Source: a virus (lineage: Duplodnaviria; Caudoviricetes). From it: a DNA stretch of 44,270 bases. Location of the stretch: positions 1 to 44,270 of the IMG/VR virus record IMGVR_UViG_3300024232_000022; one strand, written 5' to 3'. Shown in pieces: positions 2,139-44,270 of this stretch. The position numbers were made by a program, and so were the translations under genes. Within the stretch, counting starts at the first letter, position 1, and each line of letters opens with the position of its first letter. The notes under the pieces were generated by a model. The model had not been told where the DNA came from. It was given only the letters and a program-made list of their open reading frames with translations, and searched no databases.

Positions 2139-3839
2139 ATGGGCGCCTTTGACGACGTTGATGCCGCCATCGCAGCCGAACGCAGGAACGTCGCGCCAGG
2201 CGCTTCGGCGCCGGCTGCGGACATGAACACGAAATATGGTCCGCCTCCACCCGATACATCGACTTCCGGCGGCATGTTCGATCGCATGCTGGTATCGAAG
2301 CCATCAATGGCGGCGCCCAGTCCGCCAAAGACATGGGGCGAGACGCTCTCGCTGGAGAACATCCGCAACACGCTGGACCCCTCGACGCGCGGCATCGTAG
2401 AAGGCATTCCGGCTGCTGGCCCAGTGATCAATCAAGGCATCGCCGGCGCGGCGGCATTGCCGTCGGCTCTTATTCCCGGCCGGACAGTGAGCGGCTCTTA
2501 TAACGATATCATGCAGGAGGGCGAGCGCAACAAGGCGGCGCATCCGATCTCGAGTGCCATTGGTCAGACAACTGGCAGTGTAGTGTCTACCGTGCCTGTA
2601 GCGCGGGCGTTCCCGAAAGTGTTCGGCGGCAACAGTTTCACCGGTCAGACGGCTGCTGGCGGGGTACTGGGCGGTACAGATGCTGCGGTACGCAGCGGCG
2701 GCGATCCGACTGAAACCGCGAAGGGTGCGTTCATTGGCGCGGCCGGCCCCACCATGGGCAGCCTCTTTGCGCCGGTTGGGCAGGCGATTTCGTCGGCGGG
2801 GCGCTGGGTCGGGCAAAACGTTCCCGGTGTCAAGTCGCTGGTGCCGAAGCGCGCCGAACTGAACTACCAAGGCGCGCTCGATGCTGGCGACCAAGGATAC
2901 AAGTCGCTTGGCGGCATGGCAACGTATGATCCTGCGGCGCGCGACGATCTGGTTCGATTGGCTTGGCGCGACATTCGTACTGGGTCCATAGGTACCAAGG
3001 ACAGCGCGCCGAATACGTTCAGAATAATGAATGATCTCACAACCATGCCGTCCAACCCGGCATCATTGCATAACGTCAGAAAGCAGCTGCAGGAGACCAT
3101 AAACACCGCGGGCGCTGGATCTGCGGAAGGGCAAAGCGCGCTGTACGCCAAAAACAAGATTGATCAGTTTCTGTCGGCGCCCCCGCCGAACGCCGTTGTC
3201 ACCGCCCCGGGCGTGCAGCCGGCCGATGTCTTTCGAACTCTGAAGGAAGCCGATACCAACTGGCGCCAGGGGATGACCGTCAAGAATGTTCGTGACCGTG
3301 TCGCCAAGGCCGAAGTCGATGCGTCCGCTGAGAACAAGTTCGCCCCGATCCTGGCCGAAGGCAGCGAGACGCGCAAACAAGTGCGCAATCTGCTCAAGAG
3401 CAATCGACAGGCCAAGTTCCTGCAGCCGGAGGACACTGAGGCACTGCAAGGCGTTGCCAGTGGCTCGCTTGGTGAACGGGCACTACAAGTCGGTGGGCTG
3501 CTATCTGGCACGCGCAGCGGTCTAGGGTCACTGCTTCCGGGATCGTTGTCTTATCTTGGGTTGGGTGGGTGGCCGGGAGTGGCTGCTGTAACAGTTGGTG
3601 GAGGGCTCGCAAATGCAGCAACCACCGGCTTGACCCGACGCGCCGTGAACGAAGCTGAACGTTCGATCTTGTCGCGCTCGCCTTATGGCCAGGCTGAACT
3701 GGCTGCTGCGCGCCCGCCGAGTGTCATCGGTTATGGAAACCCCGTCACGCCAGGACAGCCAATCGGGCCAATCCCTTACCGCAATGAAATTGCCCGCCTG
3801 ATTGCCCTGCAGGGCGAGCGTGCCGCAGTGGAGGAATAA
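2139..3839 (+). CDS. Internal virion / DNA-ejection protein, allele A
   Basis: 566 aa, Gly/Ala-rich with glycine-zipper-like hydrophobic stretches; located between an ejection gene and the tail fibre. Confidence 0.6.
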   Translation: MGAFDDVDAAIAAERRNVAPGASAPAADMNTKYGPPPPDTSTSGGMFDRMLVSKPSMAAPSPPKTWGETLSLENIRNTLDPSTRGIVEGIPAAGPVINQGIAGAAALPSALIPGRTVSGSYNDIMQEGERNKAAHPISSAIGQTTGSVVSTVPVARAFPKVFGGNSFTGQTAAGGVLGGTDAAVRSGGDPTETAKGAFIGAAGPTMGSLFAPVGQAISSAGRWVGQNVPGVKSLVPKRAELNYQGALDAGDQGYKSLGGMATYDPAARDDLVRLAWRDIRTGSIGTKDSAPNTFRIMNDLTTMPSNPASLHNVRKQLQETINTAGAGSAEGQSALYAKNKIDQFLSAPPPNAVVTAPGVQPADVFRTLKEADTNWRQGMTVKNVRDRVAKAEVDASAENKFAPILAEGSETRKQVRNLLKSNRQAKFLQPEDTEALQGVASGSLGERALQVGGLLSGTRSGLGSLLPGSLSYLGLGGWPGVAAVTVGGGLANAATTGLTRRAVNEAERSILSRSPYGQAELAAARPPSVIGYGNPVTPGQPIGPIPYRNEIARLIALQGERAAVEE

Positions 3840-3842
3840 ACC

Positions 3843-5381
3843 ATGCCACGCAATCCAGGGACGGGGGTGTACAGCAAGCCCTCTCCCGACGTGATCACCG
3901 GCACGACGATCGAGAGCACGGTCTACAACACGTTCGTCGGCGACGTTGAAACCGACCTGAACCTGCCGCGGCCGGTCAGTTCGGGCGGTACCGGCGCGAC
4001 CAGCCCTGACGGCGCATTGGTCAACGTGTCGGGCGAGAAAGCCGCGCAACTCGTGACCAGCTACGACACGCATCTATGGATGCCCGGTTCGTTCCGGTCG
4101 GCTGCGGCTGCGGCTGGCGCGCCGAATGCTACCAGCAGCTTTGTCGGCACCGCCTACATCAATGAGGCACTCGCCAATCCGCCAACCAACCAGAATGTGG
4201 TGCTGGAGGCGCGCGATCAGAACGACACCGGCTACGTGCCGGGTCGCACCTATGTGCGCGAGAAGAAGGCGGGCGTGTGGAGCGCGTGGACCGGCGGTAT
4301 CTACGCCGCCCCGTTCGACGCGATGGCGTACAGCGGGATGCAGGTGAATGGCGGAATGGAGGTTAGTCAGGAACGCGGCTTTGGTTTTTTCACTTCGACC
4401 AGTAACACTTACATTTGTGATAGCTGGTCGTTGTATAGGGCAGGCACGATGGTGGTTAACGCTACGTCTGCTGCACCGGGAGTTAGTCTTGGTATTTCTA
4501 GTTTTCCCAATTTGATTTTGATCAATACTGCTACAGCGCAAGCATCACTGGGATCTGGCGACACAACGAGCATTCAGCATCGCATTGAAGGCTATCGCAC
4601 TGTGCGACTTGCCTGGGGGACGGCAAACGCAAAGCCAATCACCATCGGGTTTTGGTCATCGCATCATCGAACAGGTGTTTATAGCGTTACATGCCTCAAC
4701 AATCTGGAGAACCGTTCTTATTGCGCTACCTACACACAAGTTGCAGTTGATACCGCGCAATATAATGTCATTACAATTCCCGGTGATGTCGCTGGGACTT
4801 GGGAATATGGTAATCAGCCGGGGCTGAGAATTACTTTCGCTATAGCAATGGGTAGCACCTACACAGCGCCAGCAGCAAACACATGGAACGCCGGTATTTT
4901 TCTTGCCGCACCGGGGCAAGTGAACGGTGTTGGCACAACAGCGGATGTTTTCCGCATCACCGGCGTCGTCGTACTCCCCGGCACGCAAGCCCCCACCGCA
5001 GCACAATCGCCGCTGATCATGCGTCCGTATGATCAGGAGTTGGTGACATGCAAACGGTATTTTTACGTGCTCGGTGAAGGCACGTCTACGACTAATACAT
5101 TGGGAACGGGACATTACTTCTCTGCCGCACAACTCAACCTCCCTGTGCAACACCCTGTTCAGATGCGCGCTGCTCCAACACTGGGGGTTACAGGTGGCGC
5201 TAGTTTCTTTTCAGTTTCTCGTAATGGCGGTTCAGAAGTGTTTAACAGTTTTGCTTCGAGTGCCCTAAGCCCAACATCCGCTCTTATTTATTCGGGCGGG
5301 ATGGCTGGAACGGCAGGACAAGCGGGTTGGGTGTTTTGTAACAACGCGGCTGCAAAAGTCTCATTCGACGCGAGGCTGTGA
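3843..5381 (+). CDS. Tail fibre / receptor-binding protein
   Basis: 512 aa; N-terminal MPRNPGTGVYSKP anchor, GGTGAT motif, beta-rich body and RPYDQELVTCKRYF motif before the last domain; lower-GC variable segments. Confidence 0.75.
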   Translation: MPRNPGTGVYSKPSPDVITGTTIESTVYNTFVGDVETDLNLPRPVSSGGTGATSPDGALVNVSGEKAAQLVTSYDTHLWMPGSFRSAAAAAGAPNATSSFVGTAYINEALANPPTNQNVVLEARDQNDTGYVPGRTYVREKKAGVWSAWTGGIYAAPFDAMAYSGMQVNGGMEVSQERGFGFFTSTSNTYICDSWSLYRAGTMVVNATSAAPGVSLGISSFPNLILINTATAQASLGSGDTTSIQHRIEGYRTVRLAWGTANAKPITIGFWSSHHRTGVYSVTCLNNLENRSYCATYTQVAVDTAQYNVITIPGDVAGTWEYGNQPGLRITFAIAMGSTYTAPAANTWNAGIFLAAPGQVNGVGTTADVFRITGVVVLPGTQAPTAAQSPLIMRPYDQELVTCKRYFYVLGEGTSTTNTLGTGHYFSAAQLNLPVQHPVQMRAAPTLGVTGGASFFSVSRNGGSEVFNSFASSALSPTSALIYSGGMAGTAGQAGWVFCNNAAAKVSFDARL

Positions 5382-5452
5382 TGGCAGATTATCAACTCAC
5401 CGCAACTGATGTCGTCATTCGTACTGCGGACGGGACGCGCCATGCCAGCTAA
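5381..5452 (+). pseudogene. N-terminal stub ([23 protein letters not shown]) of the gene continued at 6034
   Basis: Translated by hand; aligns to [21 protein letters not shown] of 6034-6348; its ATG overlaps the tail fibre stop codon. Confidence 0.85.
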
Positions 5453-6041
5453 AATGTATGACGGATGTTCCTATCCAGGCTGTTCAAGACATCACGTCGG
5501 TCGCGGATATTGTAAGCTGCACTACGACCGCTTGATGAGGACCGGCACGGCAGAACCAAGCCTTCGCGCGAGTGTTTTCTCGTCAGATGATATCTGGGAT
5601 GCATTCTCTCAATTGTTTGCCTTGGCAACACCAAACGAAAGCGGATGTTTGATATGGCCGGGGTCGAAGACGTTGGACGGGTATGGACGGCTTAGTAAGG
5701 GGAAAACATACAAAGCCCATCGTCTTTCGTATGAGCGCAGCAATGGTCCTATTCCAGCGGGTATGGAAGTTTGTCACACCTGCGATAATCCGCCTTGTGC
5801 CAACCCACGACACTTGTTTGTCGGCACTGCCAAAGACAACGCAGCGGACAGGCAAGCAAAGGGTCGCGGACGGCATGAATTGAAATGTATCGATTTTGCG
5901 TTTGTATCTCCGACGGGGGAAGTAGTGCAGGGTAACGGGCTGACAAAGTTCTGCGAAATGAACAATCTATGGCAGCCAAAAATGACTGAAGTCATGAAAG
6001 GCACGCGCGCACATCACAAGGGATGGACACGTCATGTCTGA
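5442..6041 (+). CDS. HNH homing endonuclease (His-Cys box-like / HNH_3 type)
   Basis: AHRLSY...[16 protein letters not shown]...TAKDNAAD core, N-terminal CSYPGC...GYCKLHY zinc motif, C-terminal HHKGW; lower GC; start at 5442 or 5454. Confidence 0.92.
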
Positions 6042-6348
6042 ATACCAACTCACGGCTGCTACTGAGCCATGTGTCGTAATAAGATACCGCGACGGCGCAA
6101 GCATTCCGCCAGACATGGCTAACCGGGACTATAACGGCGACCAGTTCAGCCCCGGCTACATACAATGGCTCGCGGCGGGCAACACGCCCGACCCCTACGT
6201 GCCGCCGCCCGAGGTGCCGCCGACACCCGCGCCGGAAACCACCGTGCTGTACGATCACGAGAACAGGCTGCGCGCGATCGAGGGTGAGCCGCCGCTGACG
6301 CTCGTGGACTTTCTCACCAAGGCAACCCAGACGAAGCCGCCGCCATGA
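6034..6348 (+). CDS. Tail-fibre-associated (assembly chaperone-like) protein
   Basis: [10 protein letters not shown]...[14 protein letters not shown] motif typical of small genes following tail fibres. Confidence 0.6.
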
Positions 6349-7295: not shown

Positions 7296-8000
7296 TCACA
7301 CGGCTCGGCGTCTACGCCACCGGCCAAGTCCAACCAGCCCCAGACAACCGGCGAGCACGCCGGGGATGCCGGCGCCGACGATCGGCCCAGGGACCGCAAG
7401 CGGCACGATGTAGAAGCTCTCGCCGCCGTCGGACCCGCCTTCGAACTGCGCCTGGAAGATCAGGCGATCGCCCACGTTGAGCCCTGACAGGTCGAACCCG
7501 GTCAGCAGGTAGTCGCCCTTGCCATTGCCGGGGCGGATGTCCGGCATCGAATACGGCCCGTCGAAGAACGACAGCAGCTGGATGTTATTATTGCTGCCGT
7601 CGACCCGCCACAGGCGGAAGGTATCGAGCGTCATCGCCGGTGCACCCTCGGCCGAGTTGACGTCGATCACCACACCGAAGGTAACGCGGTCGGCCAGTGC
7701 CGTGATGATCTGGCCGGCACTGTACGGCACGGCGTTGACTTCATCGCCACTGGGCAACGAGCCTCCGACAAGCGCCGTCGAGAAGAAGTTGCCGCCGTCG
7801 GTTTGTCCCGTGTTGATGAAGTTGTTGAACCCGAAATCAATCGGGTTGTGCGCCTGTTGGGTGGCGCAGATGATACAGGGGGCGCTTGCCGATTGTGGCA
7901 CCGCCGAAGCATCGTCCAGAATACTGATCGAGAGTGCACCAGCATAGGCAGGGCAGGCCAGCGCACCGAGCGCGGCCGCCGTTAACAGCAGTTTTCTCAT
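7296..8000 (-). CDS. Secreted protein with PEP-CTERM-like C-terminal sorting signal
   Basis: Signal peptide MRKLLLTAAALGALACPAYA; C-terminus VPGPIVGAGIPG + hydrophobic helix + WRRRRAV. Confidence 0.85.
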   Translation of the reverse strand: MRKLLLTAAALGALACPAYAGALSISILDDASAVPQSASAPCIICATQQAHNPIDFGFNNFINTGQTDGGNFFSTALVGGSLPSGDEVNAVPYSAGQIITALADRVTFGVVIDVNSAEGAPAMTLDTFRLWRVDGSNNNIQLLSFFDGPYSMPDIRPGNGKGDYLLTGFDLSGLNVGDRLIFQAQFEGGSDGGESFYIVPLAVPGPIVGAGIPGVLAGCLGLVGLGRWRRRRAV

Positions 8001-8066
8001 GAGATAGCCCCTTGTGTGACGCGGCTGCAGCCGCAATGGCAGTGTTGACGATGTGACAACCCGTTC

Positions 8067-24098: not shown

Positions 24099-24448
24099 TG
24101 GCAAATTGGTTTACTGACAAGATGTACGACCTCGCAGCTTCGCCGCGCGGCGGTGAGGGAGCGTGGAACGAGCTTGCCGCGCAGGATGCAATGTCGCCGG
24201 CGACGCGCGCGAGTTACTACGCCGGGTCGGAGATGCCGAAAGACCTGCGTGCGCAAGGGTGGGCCGGTATGGGCAGCACCATGGCGTTGCCAGACCCCCG
24301 CATGCAGGGTTGGCAGCCTAAGCCAAATACGTTCGACGAGCGGTTCGCTCCGATGGGTGCGATCGCTGCGCAGGATAGCTTGCCTGACAGTCCGTTCGAG
24401 CGGGCGGCAATGCGTACAGTGCGGCGTTATCGAAAGGGCGCGCCATGA
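24098..24448 (+). CDS. Hypothetical protein
   Basis: Coupled start MANWFTDK; 3' end overlaps the antisense HNH gene. Confidence 0.6.
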   Translation: MANWFTDKMYDLAASPRGGEGAWNELAAQDAMSPATRASYYAGSEMPKDLRAQGWAGMGSTMALPDPRMQGWQPKPNTFDERFAPMGAIAAQDSLPDSPFERAAMRTVRRYRKGAP

Positions 24449-24957
24449 CGCTTGAACGGACGCCGGTTTTTGTTCTGTTCCGAGTAGGTTGCCCATTTGC
24501 AATTGTCGGGCGAATAACCTCGTTCGTTATCGATGCGTTCAAGTGTAAGGCCAGGCGGCTTCTCGCCCATGTCCGCGAGAAAGTTTTCAAAGCTGTGCAG
24601 CCAGCGGTCACAAACAGTAATGCCGCGGGCGGCGTAGTTAAGGAAATCCTTCTTGCGGTTCGGGTTGTAGCAGCGCGTTTTCATGTCCGACCATGCGCGA
24701 AACGTAGTGCTCCAGCCGCCGGACGTATGCCCGTGGGTGCGGCTATGTTGTCGAGCTACTTCTTGCAAAAGGCACCCACACGAGCGTGTGTTGCCACTTC
24801 GCAAATCGCTGGTACTGACGCTTGTTTCAGTGCCGCATTCACAACGGCATTTCCAGTGAACGATAACGATACGCGGCGAGCGTCTATGTCGATGAGAGAT
24901 ACCAAGTACGGTCAATCGGCCGTACTGCTGGCCTGTGATATCATTCAATTTGGGCAT
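24427..24957 (-). CDS. HNH-family endonuclease, antisense to the late operon
   Basis: DITGQQYGRLTV...WKCRCECG...SCGC and GITVCDRW...FLADMGEKP...TLERIDNERGYSPDNCKWAT..EQ..N motifs; GGAG RBS. Confidence 0.9.
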   Translation of the reverse strand: MPKLNDITGQQYGRLTVLGISHRHRRSPRIVIVHWKCRCECGTETSVSTSDLRSGNTRSCGCLLQEVARQHSRTHGHTSGGWSTTFRAWSDMKTRCYNPNRKKDFLNYAARGITVCDRWLHSFENFLADMGEKPPGLTLERIDNERGYSPDNCKWATYSEQNKNRRPFKRHGAPFR

Positions 24958-24987
24958 CGCGCCGGCTCCACGGTTCGAGGTCAAGTG

Positions 24988-26561: not shown

Positions 26562-29500
26562 ATGGGCATACCGGTAGTCATAAAACCGTCGGGTGGCTTG
26601 CCGGTCAGTGTCTCGACCAACGGCTACGGCATGCCGATGACCGTGGCGACCAACGGCATGGGTCTTGCCGTAACGCAGGCGACCGGTGGCGGCGGACTTG
26701 CCGTCACCGGCATGACCTTCGGGCCGACGATCGCGCTGTCGGCTTCGTCGGTGCTCGAAACGGCGGCCGTCAACACCGTGGTCGGCACCTTGTCGGTGAC
26801 GGCCGGCACAACCGGAACGCCGGTGTTTGCGCTGGTCGACAGCGCGGGCGGCAAGTTCAATATCTCAGGCACGTCGCTGCGCACCAATGCGTTGCTGGAT
26901 TATGAAACCGCGACGTTCCACAGCATCACGGTGAGCGTGACTGGCGTCACGCCGACGGTGGCGAACGCGACGTTCATCATCCTGGTGCTCGACGTGGTCG
27001 AGCCGGTCATTCTGCTGACTGGCACCACGGTGAACGAGAATGCGACGGCGGGCACCAATATCGGTGTGCTGTCGATTGCCAACACGTTCACCGGAACGCC
27101 GGCCTACACGCTGGTCGACAGTTCGAGCGGCAAGGTCGCGATCAGCGGCAGCAACCTGAATGTGTTGGGCGCAATCGACTACGAGACGACGCCGACGTTC
27201 AACATCACGGTGTCGGTCAGCGGCATCACGCCGGTAGCGCCGAACAAGACGTTCACCGTGGTGGTGCTGGATGTCGCGGAAGCGGCCTATACAGGCCCCG
27301 GCGACATTAAGGCCGGCGCGTTGGGGTGGTGGGGATTGCGCGCTTATAGCGCCGCGCAGTGTACCGGGTCCGTGGCGGCCATTCAGGTGGTCAAGGCGTC
27401 CGATGGATCGTCGCCGCTGGACATCAACATTCTGGCTAACGGAAAGCTCGACGTCGCTACCATTAGCGCGTTGGGTTATGCAGTTAAGGTTAACAAGATT
27501 TACGATCAATCAGGTAACGGGCGCCATCTTCAAGCGATGAATGCCGCATACGTCCCGACAACGGCGGCTGCCCCCGATCTTACCCTTGCCGGCATGGGAG
27601 GCACGCTCCCCTGCATGACGTGGAGTGGGGGCACCCAGAGATTGGTGAACGTTGCGGGTTTCGGTGCTGTAGCTCAGCCGTTTACTGTTTCGCTTATTTA
27701 CAACAGGACGGCCTCTGCTGTGTTCGAAGCCCTGTTCGCTCCTGATGGTATTACTTACGGGGTATTCGGCAACAACGCGGCCAATGGCGCATTGATGTAT
27801 GCCGGCGCCCAACTGATAGCCGTCGCCGCAGATGGCGTGGATCATTCGGGTCAGTTTGTCTTTAACGGCGCAAGTAGCAACCTCTACATTGATGGAACGG
27901 GGACCAGCGGGAACCCGACAACCGCCGGATGGCAGGCCGGCGCCATAACTCACGGCAATTGCGGTCCCCAAGGCTCAATCGCCGGTAAGACTGCCGAAGT
28001 AGGGTTCTGGGGCTCGGCGTTCAGTGCTGGTGACGCCGCCGCAATGACGACGAACCAGACCAACTATCTTTCCGGTGTCGGTGGAGGCGGCACCGGGGTC
28101 ACAAAAAACATCGTCACGGACTACGGCGCCGTTGGTGATGCTCAGTGGGCGCGGACGACGCTGAGCATCACGACGAATGTACTCACGTCCGCAACCGCGA
28201 TTTGGCCCTCGGTTACTTCAGGGTCAGAGTACATCGGCAAGAGCATTGTGGTCGGCCGGTGCGGCGGAACTGCTGGCGAGGCTGGTGGTGGCACGCCGCT
28301 TCGCACGACGATCACGGGATGGACCAGCAGCACGCAAATCACATTGGGCGCCAACTGCGTCATGGCGCTTTCATCCGAGCCGAATGTGATCGTGGCGTGG
28401 GGTACCAACAACGGCAAGCAGATGCCCCCGAACGGGGTAGATGCTACGAATGGACCGTTCGAGACGTTCCGATTGGCGTATCAGGGTCAGGCGGTTACGC
28501 TAACGATCCCGGCAGGGAACTATCTGATCTCCAGCGGGCAGTTTGGCTTTCTGTTCAATGGCATTCGCAACATCACCGTAAACGCAACCGGCGCCACGAT
28601 ATGCGGCGGTACGTTTGCCTTGGGAGCAAACAATCAAAGTCAATGGTATGGACACAGTGGTTTCACCGCGTCGGTATCGGCTGGGGCTACATCCGCTACA
28701 CTGCTTACACCTGCCCAAGTATCGCGGTTTGCGGTTGGTCGTTATGCGTTAATGACTGGATTTGGCCTGCAATACGGCGGCTATCCGTCCAATCATCAGC
28801 TGTTTGAATACGTCTATGTTACAGCGATAGATAGCGATAGCGGAAGTCCAACTTACGGCAAGATCACGTTTCAAGCGCCTCTGACTAACGCGTATCTGTC
28901 AACGTGGCCGTTATTTCTTAACGAAACGGGCACAACACCTCCACCTGAGAATGGTCAGTATACATCGGGAGGACCCGCAACGCTTTACGCTCTGACTACT
29001 GACTTCAATCACACGGCAGTCATCAACAACCTGACCTTTGCTCATCATGCGCAGATGGGAACCGCCGGGCTTAACCTGACGCTGAACGGTTGTGTGTTCG
29101 AGAGCATCTATGGCCCGCATGCTACGGCGTGCAAAGCTGTCGTGTTCAACAACTGTCTTGGCATCCAGTGCTCGATGGAGGTCGATAAGCTCATCACATC
29201 GTTCACCATGAACGGTTGCGACTGGGGCGGGTTGACGTTCCAGAGCGCCAGCGTGGCCGAGTTTATCGCCGATGACACCGACATCAGATATTCGGTAGTC
29301 GGATCACCTCTCAAAGCCACTTTTCGTAATGGCAGCACTATCGGCATGGTGTCCGGCATTGGTGCGTTTACGCCGGGATGCGACTACGGTTATGCCAATG
29401 AACTGATTGTCACCAGCAGCCAGATAAAGAATTTTGGCGCGGTTACGACCCATCAGAGCGGCTACGTGATCCCCGGCAAGGACGGCTCCAACAACGGCAT

Positions 29501-30272
29501 GAATGTCGACTACACCATGGCGGGTGGCGTTATCACTGTTCCCATTCCGAACCCGCTCGCGTACACCGAAATCTATACGACGATGTGGCCGGTGACGAAT
29601 GGCAAGGCGTTCATACAGGACGCGGTTACTGGCGAGATGATCGGTGCTTTAAGGATCACCAATGCGACGCAGAGTGGCGGCAATGCGTTGATTGCCACGA
29701 CACTCACCGGCACTTGGCCGTCGCGTAGCGGACACAAGCTGTATCTCGTTAAGCATCCAGCGCCGATCTGCACGTTCACCAGTGTGACTGGTTGCCCCGA
29801 GGTGGTTGATTTGTCGGGTGCTGGCGCCGCCGGCCTGCCGCTTTATTCCTACAGCAAGCGCACCTACGACGGCTCGGTCGCGGCGGCCGACTACTGGCAA
29901 GTCTATGGCCGGGTGAAGAAGATCGTGGTTGCCGTAACGCAGGCAGCAAACGGAACGACGTTCCCCGGCGCAGTGACCCTGGCAGTGAACGTCAACGTCG
30001 GTAACAGCCTGATCAAGATGTCGGATTACACCAACACGACGTGGGCGCCGACCATCAATCTCAAGATCGTGGGAACGCGCACATTTGACGCGACTGCCGG
30101 TACCTACCCGGTATCCAGTTGGTCCGGCGGGCAGACTGGCGACGTGCTGCCGGGAATGACCGAGGCGCTATGGGCGCCGGGCAACTTTCGCCCCACCATG
30201 ACCGACACCAGCGCGGCAGCGGCGGGGTTGCGGCCGATCTTCTCGATCGAGGTCATCACGGATCAGGGATGA
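26562..30272 (+). CDS. Large multidomain adhesin / spike: two cadherin-like domains, ConA/arabinofuranosidase-B-like lectin domain, beta-helix-like region
   Basis: V.E.A...VGTL...LDYET twice; WWGLRAY...KIYDQSGNGRH; NIVTDYGAVGD and LTIPAGNY beta-helix cap motifs. Confidence 0.75.
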   Translation: MGIPVVIKPSGGLPVSVSTNGYGMPMTVATNGMGLAVTQATGGGGLAVTGMTFGPTIALSASSVLETAAVNTVVGTLSVTAGTTGTPVFALVDSAGGKFNISGTSLRTNALLDYETATFHSITVSVTGVTPTVANATFIILVLDVVEPVILLTGTTVNENATAGTNIGVLSIANTFTGTPAYTLVDSSSGKVAISGSNLNVLGAIDYETTPTFNITVSVSGITPVAPNKTFTVVVLDVAEAAYTGPGDIKAGALGWWGLRAYSAAQCTGSVAAIQVVKASDGSSPLDINILANGKLDVATISALGYAVKVNKIYDQSGNGRHLQAMNAAYVPTTAAAPDLTLAGMGGTLPCMTWSGGTQRLVNVAGFGAVAQPFTVSLIYNRTASAVFEALFAPDGITYGVFGNNAANGALMYAGAQLIAVAADGVDHSGQFVFNGASSNLYIDGTGTSGNPTTAGWQAGAITHGNCGPQGSIAGKTAEVGFWGSAFSAGDAAAMTTNQTNYLSGVGGGGTGVTKNIVTDYGAVGDAQWARTTLSITTNVLTSATAIWPSVTSGSEYIGKSIVVGRCGGTAGEAGGGTPLRTTITGWTSSTQITLGANCVMALSSEPNVIVAWGTNNGKQMPPNGVDATNGPFETFRLAYQGQAVTLTIPAGNYLISSGQFGFLFNGIRNITVNATGATICGGTFALGANNQSQWYGHSGFTASVSAGATSATLLTPAQVSRFAVGRYALMTGFGLQYGGYPSNHQLFEYVYVTAIDSDSGSPTYGKITFQAPLTNAYLSTWPLFLNETGTTPPPENGQYTSGGPATLYALTTDFNHTAVINNLTFAHHAQMGTAGLNLTLNGCVFESIYGPHATACKAVVFNNCLGIQCSMEVDKLITSFTMNGCDWGGLTFQSASVAEFIADDTDIRYSVVGSPLKATFRNGSTIGMVSGIGAFTPGCDYGYANELIVTSSQIKNFGAVTTHQSGYVIPGKDGSNNGMNVDYTMAGGVITVPIPNPLAYTEIYTTMWPVTNGKAFIQDAVTGEMIGALRITNATQSGGNALIATTLTGTWPSRSGHKLYLVKHPAPICTFTSVTGCPEVVDLSGAGAAGLPLYSYSKRTYDGSVAAADYWQVYGRVKKIVVAVTQAANGTTFPGAVTLAVNVNVGNSLIKMSDYTNTTWAPTINLKIVGTRTFDATAGTYPVSSWSGGQTGDVLPGMTEALWAPGNFRPTMTDTSAAAAGLRPIFSIEVITDQG

Positions 30273-30391
30273 GCAAGCTGGTCGAAATCGCGCCCAACCG
30301 TTGGCGCTTCGTGCGCGAGCAAACGCCGGTCGCGCGCTCTGCGCTGCCGCGGCCCTACGTGATCAGCGACGACAGGATACGAGAATGGTGA
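30269..30391 (+). pseudogene. N-terminal stub (MSKLVEIAPNRWRFVREQTPVARSALPRPYVISD-DRIREW*) of the gene continued at 30873
   Basis: Aligns residue by residue with MRLVEIAYNRWRFVRDETPPARSEFPCPHIISD. Confidence 0.9.
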
Positions 30392-30885
30392 GCATCGCGA
30401 GACTGCGTGAATTGGTTGCATATGATCCGGCGACGGGTGTGCTTCGTTGGATCGTTGATCGCAATAATCATGTCAAAAGAGGGCATGAAGCAGGCTACAT
30501 CAATGATGGTTATCGCGTGATCGGAGTGGATGGTTCTAGGCTGAAGGCGCAACGGATCGCATGGGCGCTTCATTACGATGAATGGCCGACCAGCAGGATT
30601 GATCACATCAACCGCGATGCATCTGACAACCGTATTGCCAATCTGCGGCAAGTCACGCATGCGCAGAACATTGCCAATACTCGATCCAAAATGCCGGGGC
30701 GTCCAAAGGGTGTTTATTGGCACAAGCAGCGTCAGCAGTGGCATTCGAACATCACAATCGGCGGCAAGAAGCGGCATCTCGGTCTGTTCCAAACGGAAGG
30801 CGAGGCAGCGGCGGCGTTTGAACGCGCGTCGCGTCAGGTCTACGGCGAATTTGCGCGTGTGGAGGCAAAGCCATGCGCCTCGTAG
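30385..30885 (+). CDS. HNH-AP2 homing endonuclease
   Basis: LRELVAYDPATG...IDHINRDASDNRIANLRQVTHAQN HNH motif; KGVYW...HLGLFQTEGEAAAA...YGEFA AP2 domain. Confidence 0.93.
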   Translation: MVSIARLRELVAYDPATGVLRWIVDRNNHVKRGHEAGYINDGYRVIGVDGSRLKAQRIAWALHYDEWPTSRIDHINRDASDNRIANLRQVTHAQNIANTRSKMPGRPKGVYWHKQRQQWHSNITIGGKKRHLGLFQTEGEAAAAFERASRQVYGEFARVEAKPCAS

Positions 30886-31172
30886 AGATTGCCTACAATC
30901 GCTGGCGTTTCGTGCGGGATGAAACACCGCCTGCGCGGAGTGAGTTTCCTTGTCCTCATATCATCAGCGATATCATGGACCCTGTGGAACAGGTCGACGG
31001 CCGGTTCTACGAGAGCAAGGCGGCGTTTCGCGCGGTCGGTCGGGCGCTCGGGCTGACCGAGGTTGGCAACGAGAAGCCGAAACCAAAGGTGCGCGCGACA
31101 GCGGACCCTAAAGTAAAAGAGGCGCGGCAGCAGTCGCTGCGCAAGGCGATAGAGAAGCTACGGTCAGCCTGA
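30873..31172 (+). CDS. Conserved small phage protein upstream of scaffold
   Basis: IISDIMDP...DGRFYESKAAFR...G..EVGNE motif; GGAGG RBS inside the HNH gene. Confidence 0.8.
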   Translation: MRLVEIAYNRWRFVRDETPPARSEFPCPHIISDIMDPVEQVDGRFYESKAAFRAVGRALGLTEVGNEKPKPKVRATADPKVKEARQQSLRKAIEKLRSA

Positions 31173-31200
31173 CCGCAAATACGGTCAAACAGACCGCACT
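31159..31200. promoter_or_regulatory. Tandem pair of palindromes with 21-bp period upstream of the scaffold gene
   Basis: tacggtca-gcct-gaccgca and tacggtca-aaca-gaccgca. Confidence 0.55.
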
Positions 31201-31238
31201 CGACCCCCGCCGGTTACCCCGGCCGAAGGAGTGGTTTT

Positions 31239-32483
31239 ATGTCTGATGTCGGTGTTGCACCTGCCCCTGCGCCTGCCGCGGCGCAATCTGAAGTTCCGAT
31301 CAATCCAGATCCGGTGAACACGCCGGCGCCGGTCACCAACCAGCCGCCGGAAAAACAGCCGGTGGACATGAAGGATGCCGACCCCAGGCGGGAAAGCATC
31401 CGCAAGGCGATCGAGCGCGCCAAGGCGCGCGATCCGAACGACAAGGGCGAGCCGCGCAAGGCGAAGATGGGCGACAACCAGCCGCCCGAGGAGACGAAGC
31501 CTGAGCGCGCGAAACCTGAAAAGATCGACCTGAAAAAGCGGCCGGACGACCAGCCACGCGATCGCGGGCGGTTTGCGCCGAAAGAACGGGCGGAAAGCCA
31601 AGAGGCAACGGCGTCAGACCCGGGTCAAGCGCGACAACCAAGCCAACAGCCGGCGCAACAGTACAAGCAACTCCCGGACAACGACCCCTACCGCGAGCCA
31701 CTGCGCCGGATGACCGACCACGCCAAGGCGGAGTGGGCGGCGACGCCGGTGAACGTGCGCAGCGACATTCACCGCATGCACAAGGAGTTCGGTGAGGCGT
31801 TCAACCGCTACCAAGCCGACCACAAGACCATGAGCAGCATTCGCCACTATGAGAAGATGGCGAAAGATCACGGCACCACGCTCGGTGAGGCGCTGGACCG
31901 CTACACCGGGATGGAAAAGCTGCTGCGCGCCGAGCCGTTCCGGGCGTTCGACACCATCACCAACAACCTCAACCTGCGCTCGCCGGACGGGCAGAAGCTG
32001 ACCTTCCGCGATCTGGCCTGGGCCTACCTCAACCAGACGCCGGAGCAGCACAGGATGGCGCAGGGCGAGAACGCCCAGACTGCGCAGAGCCACCAGATCG
32101 GGCAGTTACATTCGATGGTGAACACCCTTGCGCAGGGCATCCAGGAGATGCAGTATGAGCGCAAGTTCACGCATACCCGTAGTGCGCTTGATCGGTACGC
32201 CGACACGCACCCCCGGTTCGATGAGCTTGGCGATCTGATCGAGCAGGAAATCAAGTTCGGCTTTGACGTCGACACGGCGTACCGGCGCGCCCTACTGCTA
32301 AGACCGGCCACAGCGGCTCAGACCCGCACCACGACGGCTCAGACCCGTACCGATCCCGACCGCAGCATTCACGGCGCGCCCGCCAATGGCCCTGCCAACG
32401 GGGCGCAGCGCCGCAATGGCAAGCCGCCGGAACGCCGCGAGGCGATTGCGCGTGCGATCAAGCACGTCAACGGCTCGCTCTGA
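31239..32483 (+). CDS. Scaffolding protein
   Basis: Disordered charged N-terminus with RDRGRFA, helical body; directly upstream of the capsid gene; AAGGAG RBS. Confidence 0.75.
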   Translation: MSDVGVAPAPAPAAAQSEVPINPDPVNTPAPVTNQPPEKQPVDMKDADPRRESIRKAIERAKARDPNDKGEPRKAKMGDNQPPEETKPERAKPEKIDLKKRPDDQPRDRGRFAPKERAESQEATASDPGQARQPSQQPAQQYKQLPDNDPYREPLRRMTDHAKAEWAATPVNVRSDIHRMHKEFGEAFNRYQADHKTMSSIRHYEKMAKDHGTTLGEALDRYTGMEKLLRAEPFRAFDTITNNLNLRSPDGQKLTFRDLAWAYLNQTPEQHRMAQGENAQTAQSHQIGQLHSMVNTLAQGIQEMQYERKFTHTRSALDRYADTHPRFDELGDLIEQEIKFGFDVDTAYRRALLLRPATAAQTRTTTAQTRTDPDRSIHGAPANGPANGAQRRNGKPPERREAIARAIKHVNGSL

Positions 32484-38895: not shown

Positions 38896-40398
38896 ATGAG
38901 CTTTTTAAAACCCGACCCGCCTCAACCGCCCGATCCGATCCGCACGGCGGCAGGCGCGACCGCGACCAATGTCGGCACTGCGGTCGCCAACCAAATGATG
39001 AACCAGGTCAACCAGGTCACCAATCAGGGCACGTTGACCTATAACCAGACCGGCACGTTCGACTGGAACGACCCGACCACCGGGCAGACCTACCACATCC
39101 CGCTGTCGACTGCGACGCAGTCGCTTTCGCCGGACCAACAGAATTTATCTAATTTGGGAATGCAGACGCAGACCAATCTGGGTGGTCTGGCGGCACAACA
39201 AAGCGGGTCGTTACAGAACCTTTTGGCGGCGCCGATGAATTTGTCCGGGGCTCCTGCTCAGGCCCCGATGAATTGGCTGACCGACGTCTCCGATCCCAAA
39301 TATGGCTTTGCCGATGTTGGCGGACAGCAACGTAGCCTTGGCGATTATGGTCAGCAGCAGGGCACGTTCGGCGATGCCGGCGATATCACGCGCAGCTATG
39401 GCCCAACGGACAACTTCAGCGCCGACCGGCAGCGGGTCGAGGAAAGCCTTTATGGCCGCATTGATCCCAAGCTGCAGCAGGACCGCCAAGCGCTCGAGAC
39501 GCGGCTGCAGGATCAAGGCATTCGTTACGGCTCGACCGCTTACAACCAGGCGATGGACGACTGGAACCGGCAGTCGACCGATGCGCGCCTCGCGGTGACT
39601 GCGGCGGGCGGGCAGGAACAGCAGCGCATGATGGAGATGGCGGCGCAGCGCGCCGGCTTCCAGAACGCCGCGCAACAACAGGCTTACACCCAAGCGCTCG
39701 GTCGCGGCACGTTCGCCAATCAGGCGCAGGCGCAGCAATTCCAGGAAATGCTCAACGCCGGCACGTTCGCCAACCAGGCACAATCGCAGGACTTCCAGCA
39801 GGCGGCATTGCGAGGGCAGTTTTATAATGCCGCGGCAGCGCAAAATCTTGCACGCAACCAGGCGATTTCCGCCGCACAAAACCAGACCCGTGCGACGTCC
39901 TTGGCCGAGCAGTACGCGCAGCGCAACCAGCCGATCAACGAGATCAGTGCACTGATGAGCGGGTCGCAGGTAAAAGACCCGTCGTTCATACCCACGGGCA
40001 ACCAGCAGATCGCCACCACGGATTATGCCGGGCTGGTCAACAACCGCTTCAACCAGGACATGCAAAACTACCAGACGCAGAGCAACAACGCCAACCAGCT
40101 GATCGGCGGCTTGTTCGGCGCCATTGCCGGCGCGGGACGTGGCGGGGCGTTCAATTCCGACCGACGCGTCAAGGAAGACATCGACAAGGTCGGCACTGTC
40201 TTTGGCGTTGGATCTGATGGCGACAAAGAACTGCCGATCTACGAGTACAAGTACAAGGGCAAGCTCGACGACGGGCAGCGCCACATCGGCCCGATGGCGC
40301 AGGACGTCGAGAAGATCGACAAGGAAGCAGTGGTTACGCGCAATGGCGTGAAGCAGATCAAGCGGACCAAGCTCGGTTCAATCCTGAAGGTGGCGTGA
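38896..40398 (+). CDS. DNA-ejection (pilot) protein with C-terminal peptidase S74-like chaperone domain
   Basis: Gln/Asn/Ala-rich body, glycine zipper, then SDRRVKEDI...IYEYKYK...IGPMAQDVEK. Confidence 0.8.
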   Translation: MSFLKPDPPQPPDPIRTAAGATATNVGTAVANQMMNQVNQVTNQGTLTYNQTGTFDWNDPTTGQTYHIPLSTATQSLSPDQQNLSNLGMQTQTNLGGLAAQQSGSLQNLLAAPMNLSGAPAQAPMNWLTDVSDPKYGFADVGGQQRSLGDYGQQQGTFGDAGDITRSYGPTDNFSADRQRVEESLYGRIDPKLQQDRQALETRLQDQGIRYGSTAYNQAMDDWNRQSTDARLAVTAAGGQEQQRMMEMAAQRAGFQNAAQQQAYTQALGRGTFANQAQAQQFQEMLNAGTFANQAQSQDFQQAALRGQFYNAAAAQNLARNQAISAAQNQTRATSLAEQYAQRNQPINEISALMSGSQVKDPSFIPTGNQQIATTDYAGLVNNRFNQDMQNYQTQSNNANQLIGGLFGAIAGAGRGGAFNSDRRVKEDIDKVGTVFGVGSDGDKELPIYEYKYKGKLDDGQRHIGPMAQDVEKIDKEAVVTRNGVKQIKRTKLGSILKVA

Positions 40399-40399
40399 C

Positions 40400-42508
40400 A
40401 TGGTAGAGCCAACTTATCGTCCCGGGGTGCTCTCCGAGAGCGGAATACTTCCGATGCTCACGGGCGACAGCGGCCCGGTATCGCTCGAGGACATCAAGCG
40501 CCGGCGCGCGATCGCGGCGGCACTGGCGACGCGCTCGCGGCCGTTCCCCAAGACGATCGGCGAGGGCCTGACCTCGATGGGCGAGGCGTTCGGCGATGTC
40601 ATGGCCGACCGGCGCCTGACCGCACAAGAGGCCGAGCTACGCAAGCGCAGCATGGCGGAGCTGAACCCGACCGCAGGCGCCGTTCCTGCCGTGGCGGCGC
40701 CAACCGCCACGCCCATCGTTCCGCCGGTGTCGTCCCGTCCGCCGGCAGCGCCTATTGCCCCGGTTGCTCCGGTTGTCGCCAGGCCGCCGGCGACAGATCC
40801 GCGCGACGCCATCGCGCGCGCGATCCAGGCGCGTGAAGGCATTGTCGGCCCCGCCGCGCCGCAGCCCGCCCGGGAGGTGGCGTCGCCGGACCCTACGCAG
40901 GCGGGGGAACAACCCCCGCAAGCTTTGCAGACCGCTACGGCTTCGGAGGGAGCTTCGCCGACCGCTGGTGGTGACGACCCTGTTTGGGCCGCGCGCCAGG
41001 GCGCGATTGGCGGCATCGAAAGCCGCGGCCAGCCTGATCCGTACCAGGCGGTCGGGGCGCCAACCAAGTACGGCCGCGGGCTTGGGCGCTATCAGGTGGT
41101 CGAGGCCAACGTCGCGCCGTGGACGCAGGCGGCGCTCGGCCAGGCGCTAACGCCGCAGCAGTATCTCGCCAGCCCGCAGGCGCAGGACGCCGTGTTCAAG
41201 CACCGCTTTGGGCAGTACATCGACCAGTTCGGCGAGGAGGGCGCCGCGCGTGCCTGGTTCGGCGGGCCGGGCAATGTCAACAAGGGCGACCTGACCGACG
41301 TGCACAAGCGGCTGTCGATTGCCGATTACGGCAAGAGCTATATGGCCGGACTGCAGGCGGGTACCGATCCGACGCGATTGGCCTATGCGTCGACTGGCAC
41401 GGCGACCGACGCGCCATCGCCCGCGGCACGGGGTGGCATGGCGATCCCACCGCTGGCTGAGGAAAACCCGGTCACCCCGAGCGACATCACGCCGGCGCCG
41501 CGCGTAATGGCGGAACTTAAGCCGCCCGGCGGCAGCGGCGTAGTCCCCGGCGCTGCACCTGCAACTCCCGCCAGTGCGGCGCCGGGCGAGTACCGGCCGC
41601 CCAAGCCGGTACCGCCGGAAGGGATGCGGCGTATTCCGCCGACGCCCGACGAGGTGCGCGCCACGCGGGCGCTGATCATCGACCCGGAAAACCAGGCGGC
41701 GGCGTACCTGCTGCAACAGGCGCAGGCCGAGCGCAAGCGAATGGAGGAAAGCGAGAAGATCCGCTACCAAGCCGACGTGACCCGCTACGAGGGCCAGGTG
41801 AAGGAGGAGCAGAGCTGGCTGGCAGGCGAGGAAAACCGCAAGGAAGAGCGGAAGAAGCGGCAGGAGGCCGACGCCTTGAAGGCGGCCTACGGCAACCTGC
41901 CAGAGCCGGTTCGGAAGCACCTCGATGAAAGCACGACGACGGCGAAGACTGCAGCCGGCGCGATCGAGGCGGTACGCGATGCCAGGGCCGCCATGGAAGC
42001 AGGCACGGTGTTCGGGTTCGGCGCCGAGGCGAAGCTGCAGGCGTATCGCGCAGCAGCCGCGGCAGGCAACGCGGATGCGCAGCGCATCGTGGCCGCAACG
42101 CAGACATTCAACACCAGTTTGGGGCCGATCATCCAGGCGACGATCAAGGCATATGCCGGCAAGGACGTGTCGAAGAGCGAACTGCAGTTCGTCACCGGCA
42201 TGGCGGGCGGCGACATCTCGCGCGACAAGCTGTCGGCCGAACGCATGCTTAGCGTTGCCGAACGGGCTGCGAATGAAACGATAAGGAACCACAAGGACAC
42301 GCTCGAGACCATGCTCAAAGGGCAAGAGCCAACCGCACACCCGGTACTGCGCTCGCTCTACGGTGTGCGCGAGCCGCTGCCGGGCGTGCCGATACCGACG
42401 GCCGCACCGGCCGGTCCTGTTATCGATGTTCGCTCCGAGGAGGAGGCTAACCGGCTGCCGCCAGGGTCGCGGTTCCGGTTGAATGGCCGAACAGGCACGG
42501 TGCGCTAA
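40400..42508 (+). CDS. Internal virion / DNA-ejection protein with lysozyme-like domain, allele B
   Basis: N-terminal 73 aa and the central domain nearly identical to 15-2135; linker and C-terminal ~300 aa different. Confidence 0.7.
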   Translation: MVEPTYRPGVLSESGILPMLTGDSGPVSLEDIKRRRAIAAALATRSRPFPKTIGEGLTSMGEAFGDVMADRRLTAQEAELRKRSMAELNPTAGAVPAVAAPTATPIVPPVSSRPPAAPIAPVAPVVARPPATDPRDAIARAIQAREGIVGPAAPQPAREVASPDPTQAGEQPPQALQTATASEGASPTAGGDDPVWAARQGAIGGIESRGQPDPYQAVGAPTKYGRGLGRYQVVEANVAPWTQAALGQALTPQQYLASPQAQDAVFKHRFGQYIDQFGEEGAARAWFGGPGNVNKGDLTDVHKRLSIADYGKSYMAGLQAGTDPTRLAYASTGTATDAPSPAARGGMAIPPLAEENPVTPSDITPAPRVMAELKPPGGSGVVPGAAPATPASAAPGEYRPPKPVPPEGMRRIPPTPDEVRATRALIIDPENQAAAYLLQQAQAERKRMEESEKIRYQADVTRYEGQVKEEQSWLAGEENRKEERKKRQEADALKAAYGNLPEPVRKHLDESTTTAKTAAGAIEAVRDARAAMEAGTVFGFGAEAKLQAYRAAAAAGNADAQRIVAATQTFNTSLGPIIQATIKAYAGKDVSKSELQFVTGMAGGDISRDKLSAERMLSVAERAANETIRNHKDTLETMLKGQEPTAHPVLRSLYGVREPLPGVPIPTAAPAGPVIDVRSEEEANRLPPGSRFRLNGRTGTVR

Positions 42509-44130
42509 TGCCGCTCGTTTATGACGATACTCCTGCAGGGAAGCTGGTGTACGACGAAGCGCCGCGCACGCCATCCGGCTGGGAACTGGCGAAAAGCATC
42601 GGCGGCACGGTTGGGCAGACTATCGTTGATGCCGGCACAGCAGCCGGTCACGCCGCTACCTTTGGACTGGACGTTCGCCGGGACGCGCTTTCCGGATGGC
42701 TAGCCGGGGACTATCCCAGTTATTCCGCGGGCGTGGAGGCGGAACAAGCCAAGCTCGAAAAGCAACGCGAACGTAGCCCCTACGCCTCGATCGCGGGAGA
42801 TGTTGGCGGTGCTGCTCTCATACCGGGAATGGGCGGAGCCGGCTTGGCGGCGCGGCTGGGCACAGGACTGGGAAGGTGGGGGCAAGCAGGGGCGCGGGCA
42901 GCCGGCTATGGCCTAGAGGGCGCAGCGACCGGCGCGGCGCAAGGCGCCGGCACGACCTACAGCGGCAAACCCGTTGACTACATCACCAACGCCGCCACCG
43001 GTGGCGCGGTGGGTGGCGTACTCGGCGCCGGCATGGGTTCGATCTTCGGGCCGCGCGGCGGGATGCAGTCGACCGCCAAGGTGCCAACCACCGCGGAGCA
43101 GTACGCCGACAAGACTGCGCGCTACACGGCGCTGGAGAACAGTCCGGCGCTGTACGAGCCAAATGCGTTGGCACGCGCCGCCACGCCGACCGAGGACGTG
43201 TTACGGGCGCAGCGGTATCACCAGAACGATAGCCCGCGTACATTCCGCGCGGTCGATGAAATGCGTGCGCCGCCGACCACAGAACATCTCGGGATCGGCG
43301 CGCCGGTTTCGCCGGGTGACATCGAGTATATTCGCAAGGGGCTCAACCGAACCGAACCAGGAACCGTGGACAGAGATGCTTCCGGGTACGTCAAACGGGC
43401 GCTCGACAACTTCGTGCTCAACCCGCCGCCCGGCGCCGTGATGCCGGGCACAGAGCGCGCGGCGGCAGAGGCGTCTGCACTGGCGCAGAGCGCGCGCGAC
43501 GCACACGGCGCTTTTCGGCGCGGCCAACTGTTCGACAGTTTGATCGAGAACGCCACGACCAGTGCGGCGGGCGCCGCTTCCGGGCTCAACCTACAGAACC
43601 GGCTGCGCCAAGCCGCCGGCGGCGCATTGCGCATGAACGACAAGGGGCAATCGGCCCTCTCAAAAGCGCACTACAGCCCCGAAGAAATCGCGCGCGTTAC
43701 CGAGTTTGCGCGCGTGCCGCGCGGCGATGCGACGTTGCGCTACGTCGATCGCATAATGGGTGGCGGCGGCGGTCTTGGTCTTACTGCAGCTGCAGTTGCC
43801 GGCGGCGCAGGAGGCGGCGCCTACTTCGAAGACCCGAAATGGGCCGGGACGGTTGCCATTCCTGCTGCTGGTTTTGCTCTGCGTACCTTGGGCAACCGGC
43901 GCGCGCTGCGGAACATGAACGAGCTGCGCGACATGGTTCATCAGCGTTCGCCACTCTACCAGGAACGTGTCGCCACCGCGCCGATGGTACCACCACCCGG
44001 TGGTGGCATCCCTGCTACTTTGCGCGATGCCATGGCGATCGAGGTGCTGCGCCAACAAGGCGATTTCCCACCAGGCGACGAGGATACGAGCGGCATCCCG
44101 CGCATTCGCGTAACGCCTCGAGAGGAATGA
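42508..44130 (+). CDS. Internal virion / DNA-ejection protein, allele B
   Basis: Distant counterpart of 2139-3839 (LDNFVLNPPPGAV vs IDQFLSAPPPNAV; QRSPLYQ vs SRSPYGQ). Confidence 0.6.
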   Translation: MPLVYDDTPAGKLVYDEAPRTPSGWELAKSIGGTVGQTIVDAGTAAGHAATFGLDVRRDALSGWLAGDYPSYSAGVEAEQAKLEKQRERSPYASIAGDVGGAALIPGMGGAGLAARLGTGLGRWGQAGARAAGYGLEGAATGAAQGAGTTYSGKPVDYITNAATGGAVGGVLGAGMGSIFGPRGGMQSTAKVPTTAEQYADKTARYTALENSPALYEPNALARAATPTEDVLRAQRYHQNDSPRTFRAVDEMRAPPTTEHLGIGAPVSPGDIEYIRKGLNRTEPGTVDRDASGYVKRALDNFVLNPPPGAVMPGTERAAAEASALAQSARDAHGAFRRGQLFDSLIENATTSAAGAASGLNLQNRLRQAAGGALRMNDKGQSALSKAHYSPEEIARVTEFARVPRGDATLRYVDRIMGGGGGLGLTAAAVAGGAGGGAYFEDPKWAGTVAIPAAGFALRTLGNRRALRNMNELRDMVHQRSPLYQERVATAPMVPPPGGGIPATLRDAMAIEVLRQQGDFPPGDEDTSGIPRIRVTPREE

Positions 44131-44133
44131 GTA

Positions 44134-44270
44134 ATGCCCCGCAACCCCGGAACCGGCGTCTACAGCAAGCCCTCGCCCGACGTGATCACTGGCACGACGA
44201 TCGAGAGTACGGTCTACAACACGTTCGTCGGCGACGTGGAAACCGACCTGAACACGGCGCGTCCGGTCAG
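44134..44270 (+). CDS. Tail fibre N-terminus, second copy, truncated by window end
   Basis: MPRNPGTGVYSKPSPDVITGTTIESTVYNTFVGDVETDLN identical to 3843 onward, then TARPV instead of LPRPV. Confidence 0.9.
   Translation, partial: MPRNPGTGVYSKPSPDVITGTTIESTVYNTFVGDVETDLNTARPV

Follow-up and report, generated by a model that had tools for sequence, protein, structure and literature searches.

Homing elements that bring along a copy of one end of their host gene have been described in fungi. WHO elements, known from the yeasts Torulaspora and Lachancea, take the place of the FBA1 3' end without splicing and offer an experimental precedent for the mechanism; they cut allele-specifically, and in the authors' model the displaced fragment serves as a second homology region (Coughlan et al. 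2020, PMC7282813). Fungal mitochondrial mORFs with foreign C-termini occur in Allomyces atp6, in Glomus atp6, atp9, cox2 and nad3, and in Ophiostoma rps3 (PMC3630166, PMC4019555). Here we describe a locus in the genome of an uncultured soil phage (Duplodnaviria; Caudoviricetes), IMG/VR record IMGVR_UViG_3300024232_000022. The window, that is, the whole stretch of DNA analysed, is the entire 44,270-nt contig. At 30269-31172, a short stub of a gene, here called gene X, is followed by an HNH-AP2 endonuclease gene and by a full-length gene X with a second start. With a probability of roughly 0.78, the sequence comparisons argue for an intron-less homing cassette, in which the HNH-AP2 gene carries its own ribosome-binding site (RBS) and a foreign gene X start behind a stub of the resident gene. 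The features of the locus are as follows.

30269..30391, + strand: stub open reading frame (ORF); 34 gene X-homologous codons (to ~30370-30372), then a 6-codon tail, DRIREW and stop, in the cassette
30385..30885, + strand: HNH ORF, an HNH_3 + AP2-like endonuclease of 166 aa (Pfam, PHROG, motif D73, H74, N95)
30873..31172, + strand: gene X ORF, full length, 99 aa
30873..30990, + strand: putative foreign gene X start brought by the cassette, codons 1 to ~40; rare AT-ending codons, conserved protein
30991..31172, + strand: resident-type 3' part of gene X, phrog_21669 of unknown function; ordinary codon use; putative right homology arm
30355..30997, + strand: near-invariant core among carriers (last 16 nt of the stub, HNH, carried 5' end)
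30374..30377, + strand: AGGA, a putative Shine-Dalgarno (SD)-like sequence 7 nt 5' of the HNH ATG
30861..30875, + strand: GGAGG-7nt-ATG within the HNH 3' end, the putative cassette-borne RBS and gene X start

ORF and homology analyses confirmed the order of stub, HNH-AP2 ORF and second start that the first-pass annotation had read from the letters, as well as its chain of overlapping starts and stops: ATGA links the upstream gene and the stub, ATGGTGA the stub and HNH, and HNH overlaps gene X by 13 nt. Of 33 amino acids, 22 are identical in stub and second start, 15 of these 22 being written with another codon, and 62/99 nt agree. In a six-frame self-comparison of the window, this pair was the strongest short-range repeat (E 1e-8); the comparison missed the second element at 5381-6348 described below and is not a complete survey. 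Codon use differs as had been noted, with G or C at the third position (GC3) in 30/34 codons of the stub vs 18/33 of the second start; the values are 51/66 for the remainder of gene X and 96/166 for HNH. With its left junction at gene X codon 34, the insert lies within the cognate coding sequence and not between genes.

The locus shares with WHO elements a non-splicing nuclease gene joined to a putatively resistant copy of one host-gene end, a displaced end kept as a fragment, and the position of the nuclease gene between this fragment and a full-length chimeric gene. In WHO host genes, the two ends have different histories; here, four of five replacement starts fell on a single branch (94/98) of the 5' tree (93 nt), and the 3' parts of carriers of the cassette were not clustered (72 nt), in short alignments and with two empty (cassette-free) alleles nested among the replacements. 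WHO elements differ in that they replace the 3' end, encode an intein-related LAGLIDADG-zinc-finger nuclease, act in meiosis and build clusters. The present locus has an HNH-AP2 nuclease, for which cutting is predicted from sequence, and showed no clusters; replacement is at the 5' end, which requires the cassette to supply an SD sequence and a start codon. The mORFs likewise pair an endonuclease gene with a foreign end that restores the host gene, and their native duplicate is nearer to the alleles of relatives. They act at 3' ends in organelles and encode LAGLIDADG or GIY-YIG nucleases, and their foreign C-terminus lies upstream of the ORF, in contrast to the foreign N-terminus downstream of the HNH ORF here. 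By analogy, the locus is best described as a mirror image of the WHO/mORF design and as a member of neither family. The comparators named in the first-pass annotation do not include WHO elements and mORFs, which have this design at 3' ends.

Other systems resemble the locus in part. The seg and mob genes of T4 are free-standing, unspliced and linked by start/stop overlaps, and the carrier allele is unlike that of the recipient; they differ in lying between genes, and a duplicated gene end is not described for them in the part of PMC2988022 used here. Aeh1 mobE in nrdA and T4 mobA in gene 60 are HNH genes inside coding sequence that are not spliced (PMC2988022), but their halves are separate polypeptides that reassemble, whereas here a full-length gene is rebuilt downstream. 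A split gene of the mobE/nrdA type was rejected, as the ORF after HNH encodes the complete 99 aa and the two parts are not complementary halves. Mitochondrial inserts of Tremella fuciformis duplicate part of their host gene in diverged form, and most are unspliced (PMC7315562); their "N-terminal duplications", however, are copies at the insert 5' end that resemble the following exon, an orientation like that of WHO. Among open-access full texts, we found no description of a stub with a replacement start in phages, and none in the parts covered of PMC10448857, PMC12724721, PMC2248197, PMC5418858, PMC7344957, PMC8393795 and PMC7315562.

To place stub and second start among relatives, we compared 78 viral and 79 metagenome gene X loci, the window's own being excluded and the metagenome set drawn from the best 80 of 127. 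Empty alleles were counted at loci with at least 300 nt upstream; the viral and metagenome sets overlap. No relative of the window HNH abuts gene X at 68/70 viral loci and at 61/65 metagenome loci (from the best 80 of 127), the latter including one remnant (locus L167). Empty alleles, whose existence had been predicted, are the rule, and the cassette is an optional element. Over 93 nt, the stub was the nearer of the two starts for 43/44 distinct empty viral alleles, again as predicted (L066, L075 and L078 were left out for stops or indels in the compared stretch). The best empty match was 86/93 nt for the stub (L212) vs 65/93 nt for the second start. These comparisons support the stub as resident-type sequence rather than a gene of its own.

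In 6/6 DNA runs, cassette contigs occurred alongside contigs that join the stub region to 30990-31025, and the letters at these empty joints encode xMPPTE. The closest empty alleles read ISD-AMPPTEQ; thus, the foreign segment ends near 30990-30997 (codon ~40) and not at 30971. The removable segment proposed earlier, ~30371-30971, was therefore drawn too short by ~6-8 codons on the right. Of the predicted empty reading YVISD-IMDP, the IMDP exists in some empties but neither in the closest alleles nor at the joints in the runs. Similarly, the respelling with AT-ending codons is real, but it continues to codon ~40 instead of stopping at the proposed junction. The junction stretch, ISD-xM-xxx-EQVDG, is the most conserved motif of gene X. 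Two empties (L012, 962-1060; L020, 3001-3099) start with MRLVEI and nest among the carried starts with weak support. No HNH remnant was seen in the 260 nt upstream of either, and these starts could be old scars or donors.

Four carriers (L001, L161, L162, L163) differ from the window at 1-3/488 HNH positions. Among carriers the 30 nt spanning the left junction showed 0/30 differences, and the carried 5' end differs from the window's at 4/125. Outside this core, the 5' part of the stub differs from that of the window in 17/86 nt (L001) and 23/86 nt (L162), and to the right of 30997, L001, L162 and L163 differ from it in 11/33 nt. The L162 stub is like that of the empty allele L187, and the window stub is like L212. 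Three stub alleles and two right flanks thus accompany the same cassette, and crossovers appear to gather just outside 30355-30997, as homing predicts. HNH and the 5' end travel together between different flanks, which agrees with the mobile unit proposed in the first-pass annotation.

More distant carriers vary on the left. In L005, a 62%-identical HNH stands behind only 10 stub codons; in L242, a 72%-identical HNH is fused in frame to a stub of ~19 codons, and AT-rich codons extend further into gene X. In L167, which has no stub, HNH has shrunk to 19 codons, followed by a second start of the window type (86/93) and by another 3' part. Accordingly, the left junction varies in position (codon 10, ~19 or 34) and is missing in L167, whereas the 3' junction is constant and has its own RBS. 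The sequence GAGGC[AG]AAGCCATG at the HNH end is kept in 7/7 gene X carrier loci checked, and the HNH residues E160-A161, whose codons lie over the gene X RBS region, are unchanged in 9/9 relatives. A stub is present in 5/5 intact-HNH carriers with a visible left flank (L001, L005, L162, L163, L242) and in the window. So the stable unit would be HNH together with the SD sequence, start codon and 5' end of gene X, and the left junction has probably been remade several times. In L167, a deletion inside HNH has left the foreign start in place.

The HNH ORF matches Pfam HNH_3 (E 2.8e-13) and phrog_99 (E 4.9e-58). Its putative C-terminal AP2 domain scores 19.8 bits in Pfam, below the cut-off of 33.3, and the sole match in a PDB sequence search was an AP2 protein (E 3.7e-5), with no HNH nuclease structure matched. 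D73, H74 and N95 are unchanged in 9/9 aligned HNH relatives, so that the catalytic motif is intact, and the spacing equals that of D74/H75/N96 in I-HmuI (PMC12724721). The nearest HNH relatives of known context (62-99% identity) all adjoin gene X. Scanning viral contigs for HNH, by single sequence and by motif, returned only known contigs, and a GTDB genome scan gave 68 distant HNH loci, none with >49% identity over a long match. At the protein level, P0016 seems to join a stub of 24 residues to the AP2 half.

Codon use and divergence were compared with 78 distinct indel-free empty alleles out of 147 segments. At conserved amino acid columns of codons 4-40, the window second start uses rarer synonymous codons than 78/78 empties, and so do the second starts of L001 and L242. 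Codon use is ordinary in the stub (62/78 empties have equal or lower scores) and in window codons 41-67 (74/78). Between the carried copies of the window and L242, the synonymous and nonsynonymous proportions of differences (pS, pN) are 0.66 and 0.14, and for L167 they are 0.25 and 0.02, which points to purifying selection on the carried copies. Their GC3 is similar to that of HNH (96/166), and the odd codons are best read as those of an allele long linked to the AT-richer nuclease gene. The first-pass annotation had instead proposed that recoding hinders deletion. We found no support for this guard function: L163 retains HNH despite a 17-nt exact repeat between stub and replacement, and the decay in L167 is an HNH-internal deletion. 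Selection of four window-specific changes in the second start was also rejected, since L163 has the window stub with another variant. The carried allele of L005 has the sequence EQCDGVFY (3118-3135), with C at a position that is V in 78/78 empties; the V-to-C change is possibly a resistance to a nuclease with another target.

The window contains a second element of the same design.

5381..5452, + strand: gene Y stub, ~18 homologous codons
5442..6041, + strand: second-element HNH_3 gene (Pfam E 9.7e-13), with an 83% relative in L087 that has its own stub
6034..6348, + strand: gene Y with a replacement start, GC3 12/25 at the start vs 67/79 after

It sits at the gene following a tail-fibre-like gene, and the two window HNHs show no significant similarity (BLASTP E 0.86). 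In a set of 80 gene Y loci, L087 shares this design, and L083 and L126 consist of stub, short remnant and second start. In L086 (342-1501) and L094 (263-1501), the first 10 gene Y codons are repeated ~1.2 kb upstream, before an extra tail-fibre-like gene and not a nuclease; such start-duplicating insertion may involve cargo other than a nuclease. We also surveyed HNH relatives for duplicated N-termini, as the first-pass annotation had suggested, reducing 148 loci to 133 distinct and 84 testable ones with 504 shuffled-pair controls. Four of the 84 scored above the best control (L079, the HNH of L001; L376; L246; L242). Five more look alike by eye, with scores within the control range (L243, the HNH of L005; L261; L272; L284; L266). 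L246 and L242 share one contig. By their sequences, the targets of the HNH-AP2 relatives L246, L266, L376, L261, L272 and L284 look like portal-like and glycosyltransferase-like genes.

In the homing cassette reading, the nuclease would nick or cut an empty gene X during mixed infection, at or near ISD-xM-xxx-EQVDG (codons ~29 to ~42). Repair would copy the cassette, with the stub and the remainder of gene X serving as left and right arms, respectively, and the former gene X start of the recipient would become the new stub. Gene X would then be made from the cassette's own start, leaving the host gene whole without splicing. The carrier would be resistant because its target site is split and respelled, and after nuclease decay, as in L167, the foreign start would remain. 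DNA 5' of gene X falls into 32 clusters for 80 segments, of which 3/80 match the window. Because upstream DNA varies and shows little homology among relatives, no other left arm would be available as widely as the stub; the role of left homology arm proposed for it earlier fits these data and the crossovers within it. The predicted target stretch is ~40 bp, and the model is testable in vitro without culturing the phage.

Several observations weigh against this reading. The upstream gene of L001 differs from that of the window at only 4/869 positions, compared with 3/488 in HNH, and the flank patches could be due to ordinary recombination within one carrier lineage. The absence of a stub in L167 may mean that the stub is dispensable or was secondarily lost. 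In the 5' tree, the L005 replacement stands apart and the empties L012 and L020 are nested among the replacements, and both trees rest on short alignments (93 and 72 nt). The carried copy of L005 is no codon outlier (12/78), and the stub/replacement pair is at the 94th percentile, 5.8% of empty-empty pairs being as synonymous-divergent. Of 84 testable HNH relatives, no more than 4 to 9 have the design. The cut position is uncertain here, since free-standing T4 nucleases cleave far away from where they are inserted (PMC2988022).

Some of these points recur in the alternatives. HNH might be an ordinary free-standing nuclease of the T4 seg/mob type before gene X with a linked resistant allele, its stubs being accidental leftovers of one-sided illegitimate recombination with no role in spread. 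Such a history would account for the constant 3' junction beside a variable left one and for L167 without a stub, and intronless homing with allele replacement is established (PMC2988022, PMC12724721). It fits less well with a stub in 5/5 intact carriers with a visible left flank and in the window, with crossovers that fall within the stub, with scant upstream homology (3/80) and with stubs that recur at other genes. We regard it as unlikely for the present state of the cassette, although it probably describes its origin. Less probable still is that no nuclease drive is involved, and that a passenger HNH and a partial duplication were united by mosaic recombination and drift. Phages of this group are mosaic throughout, nuclease activity is predicted from sequence, and Xanthomonas phage HNH-AP2 genes have been described without conserved flanks (PMC2248197). 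Against passive mosaicism, the catalytic motif is intact in 9/9 aligned relatives, the nearest relatives (62-99%) all adjoin gene X, the junction coincides with the best-conserved gene X motif, and the design is repeated with an unrelated HNH.

Removal of the insert at the RNA or translation level, by a group I intron or ribosomal bypass, would join the stub to gene X and make the second start incidental. HNH-containing introns are common in phages (PMC10448857, PMC7344957), removal here would leave an in-frame gene, and one Tremella insert with a host-gene duplication is a real intron (PMC7315562). The insert is, however, coding end to end, the second start appears to be under purifying selection and has its own SD sequence, and left junctions differ in position and frame, with L167 lacking the stub; we give this explanation very little weight. 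In the window, no Rfam model reached its gathering score, and 30200-31250 gave one chance-level match (E 0.73). A group I intron is very unlikely, as no ribozyme core was matched in Rfam and the insert is fully coding; an intein was rejected, because stop codons stand at 30389 and 30883 and HNH is in another frame. Two RNA runs contain 0.05 of the window's words, with no reads over the cassette. From its coding structure, the cassette would work without splicing.

Returning to the homing cassette, we lean slightly towards a wider interpretation, in which phages independently evolved non-splicing, end-replacing homing elements in a 5' form. Unrelated HNHs would carry an SD sequence, a start codon and a resistant gene start; left arms remade at new positions in the target gene would allow homing despite a variable upstream gene, and decay would leave permanently respelled starts, mosaic across the population. 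If so, many phage HNHs annotated as free-standing and intergenic are inside genes and harmless via a rebuilt gene start, and the WHO/mORF design extends from fungi to phages, in mirror image and using a different nuclease family. Tiny orphan ORFs before HNH genes and conflicting gene-start trees would likewise be explained. The locus offers a natural series of empties, three stub lengths, several flanks and a collapsed remnant.

Two genes frame the locus.

26562..30272, + strand: large upstream gene; its stop overlaps the stub start, and its slot is highly variable among relatives
31239..32483, + strand: virion structural protein downstream of gene X, followed by the major capsid gene (phrog_25516 and phrog_9953)

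The upstream gene encodes 1236 aa in the head module and has a weak cadherin-domain match; relatives have other genes in this slot. A homolog of the structural gene lies 3' of gene X in 112/112 loci with enough sequence; its product is probably scaffold-like, and the major capsid gene starts at 32511, after it. For gene X itself, Pfam gave no family, its PHROG class is unknown, its ESM Atlas clusters are unnamed and its cultured relatives are annotated as hypothetical. Between 30000 and 31300, no sigma-70-like promoter was found and terminator-like sites were not in excess.

The nearest relative of the major head protein is that of Rhizobium phage RHph_I3_18 (63%). Soil and rhizosphere metagenomes contain near-identical DNA, with at least half of the window's words present in 21 runs. 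The window ends contain diverged copies of the same large genes (1-1144 vs 40386-41586; 3831-3979 vs 44122-44270), which are 87-97% identical over 149-726 nt and not an exact terminal repeat; possibly two strains were joined during assembly. An antisense ORF of 185 aa with low-GC codons (24427-24984, - strand) gave no match in a Pfam search, and no duplicated gene start was noticed there; by its motifs, it may be a third homing-nuclease-type gene. Finally, a secreted-looking ORF of 246 aa (7296-8036, - strand) ends in a VPGP motif, a hydrophobic stretch and a basic tail, presumably like a PEP-CTERM/VPEP-type sorting signal, which we assume to be unusual in a phage.

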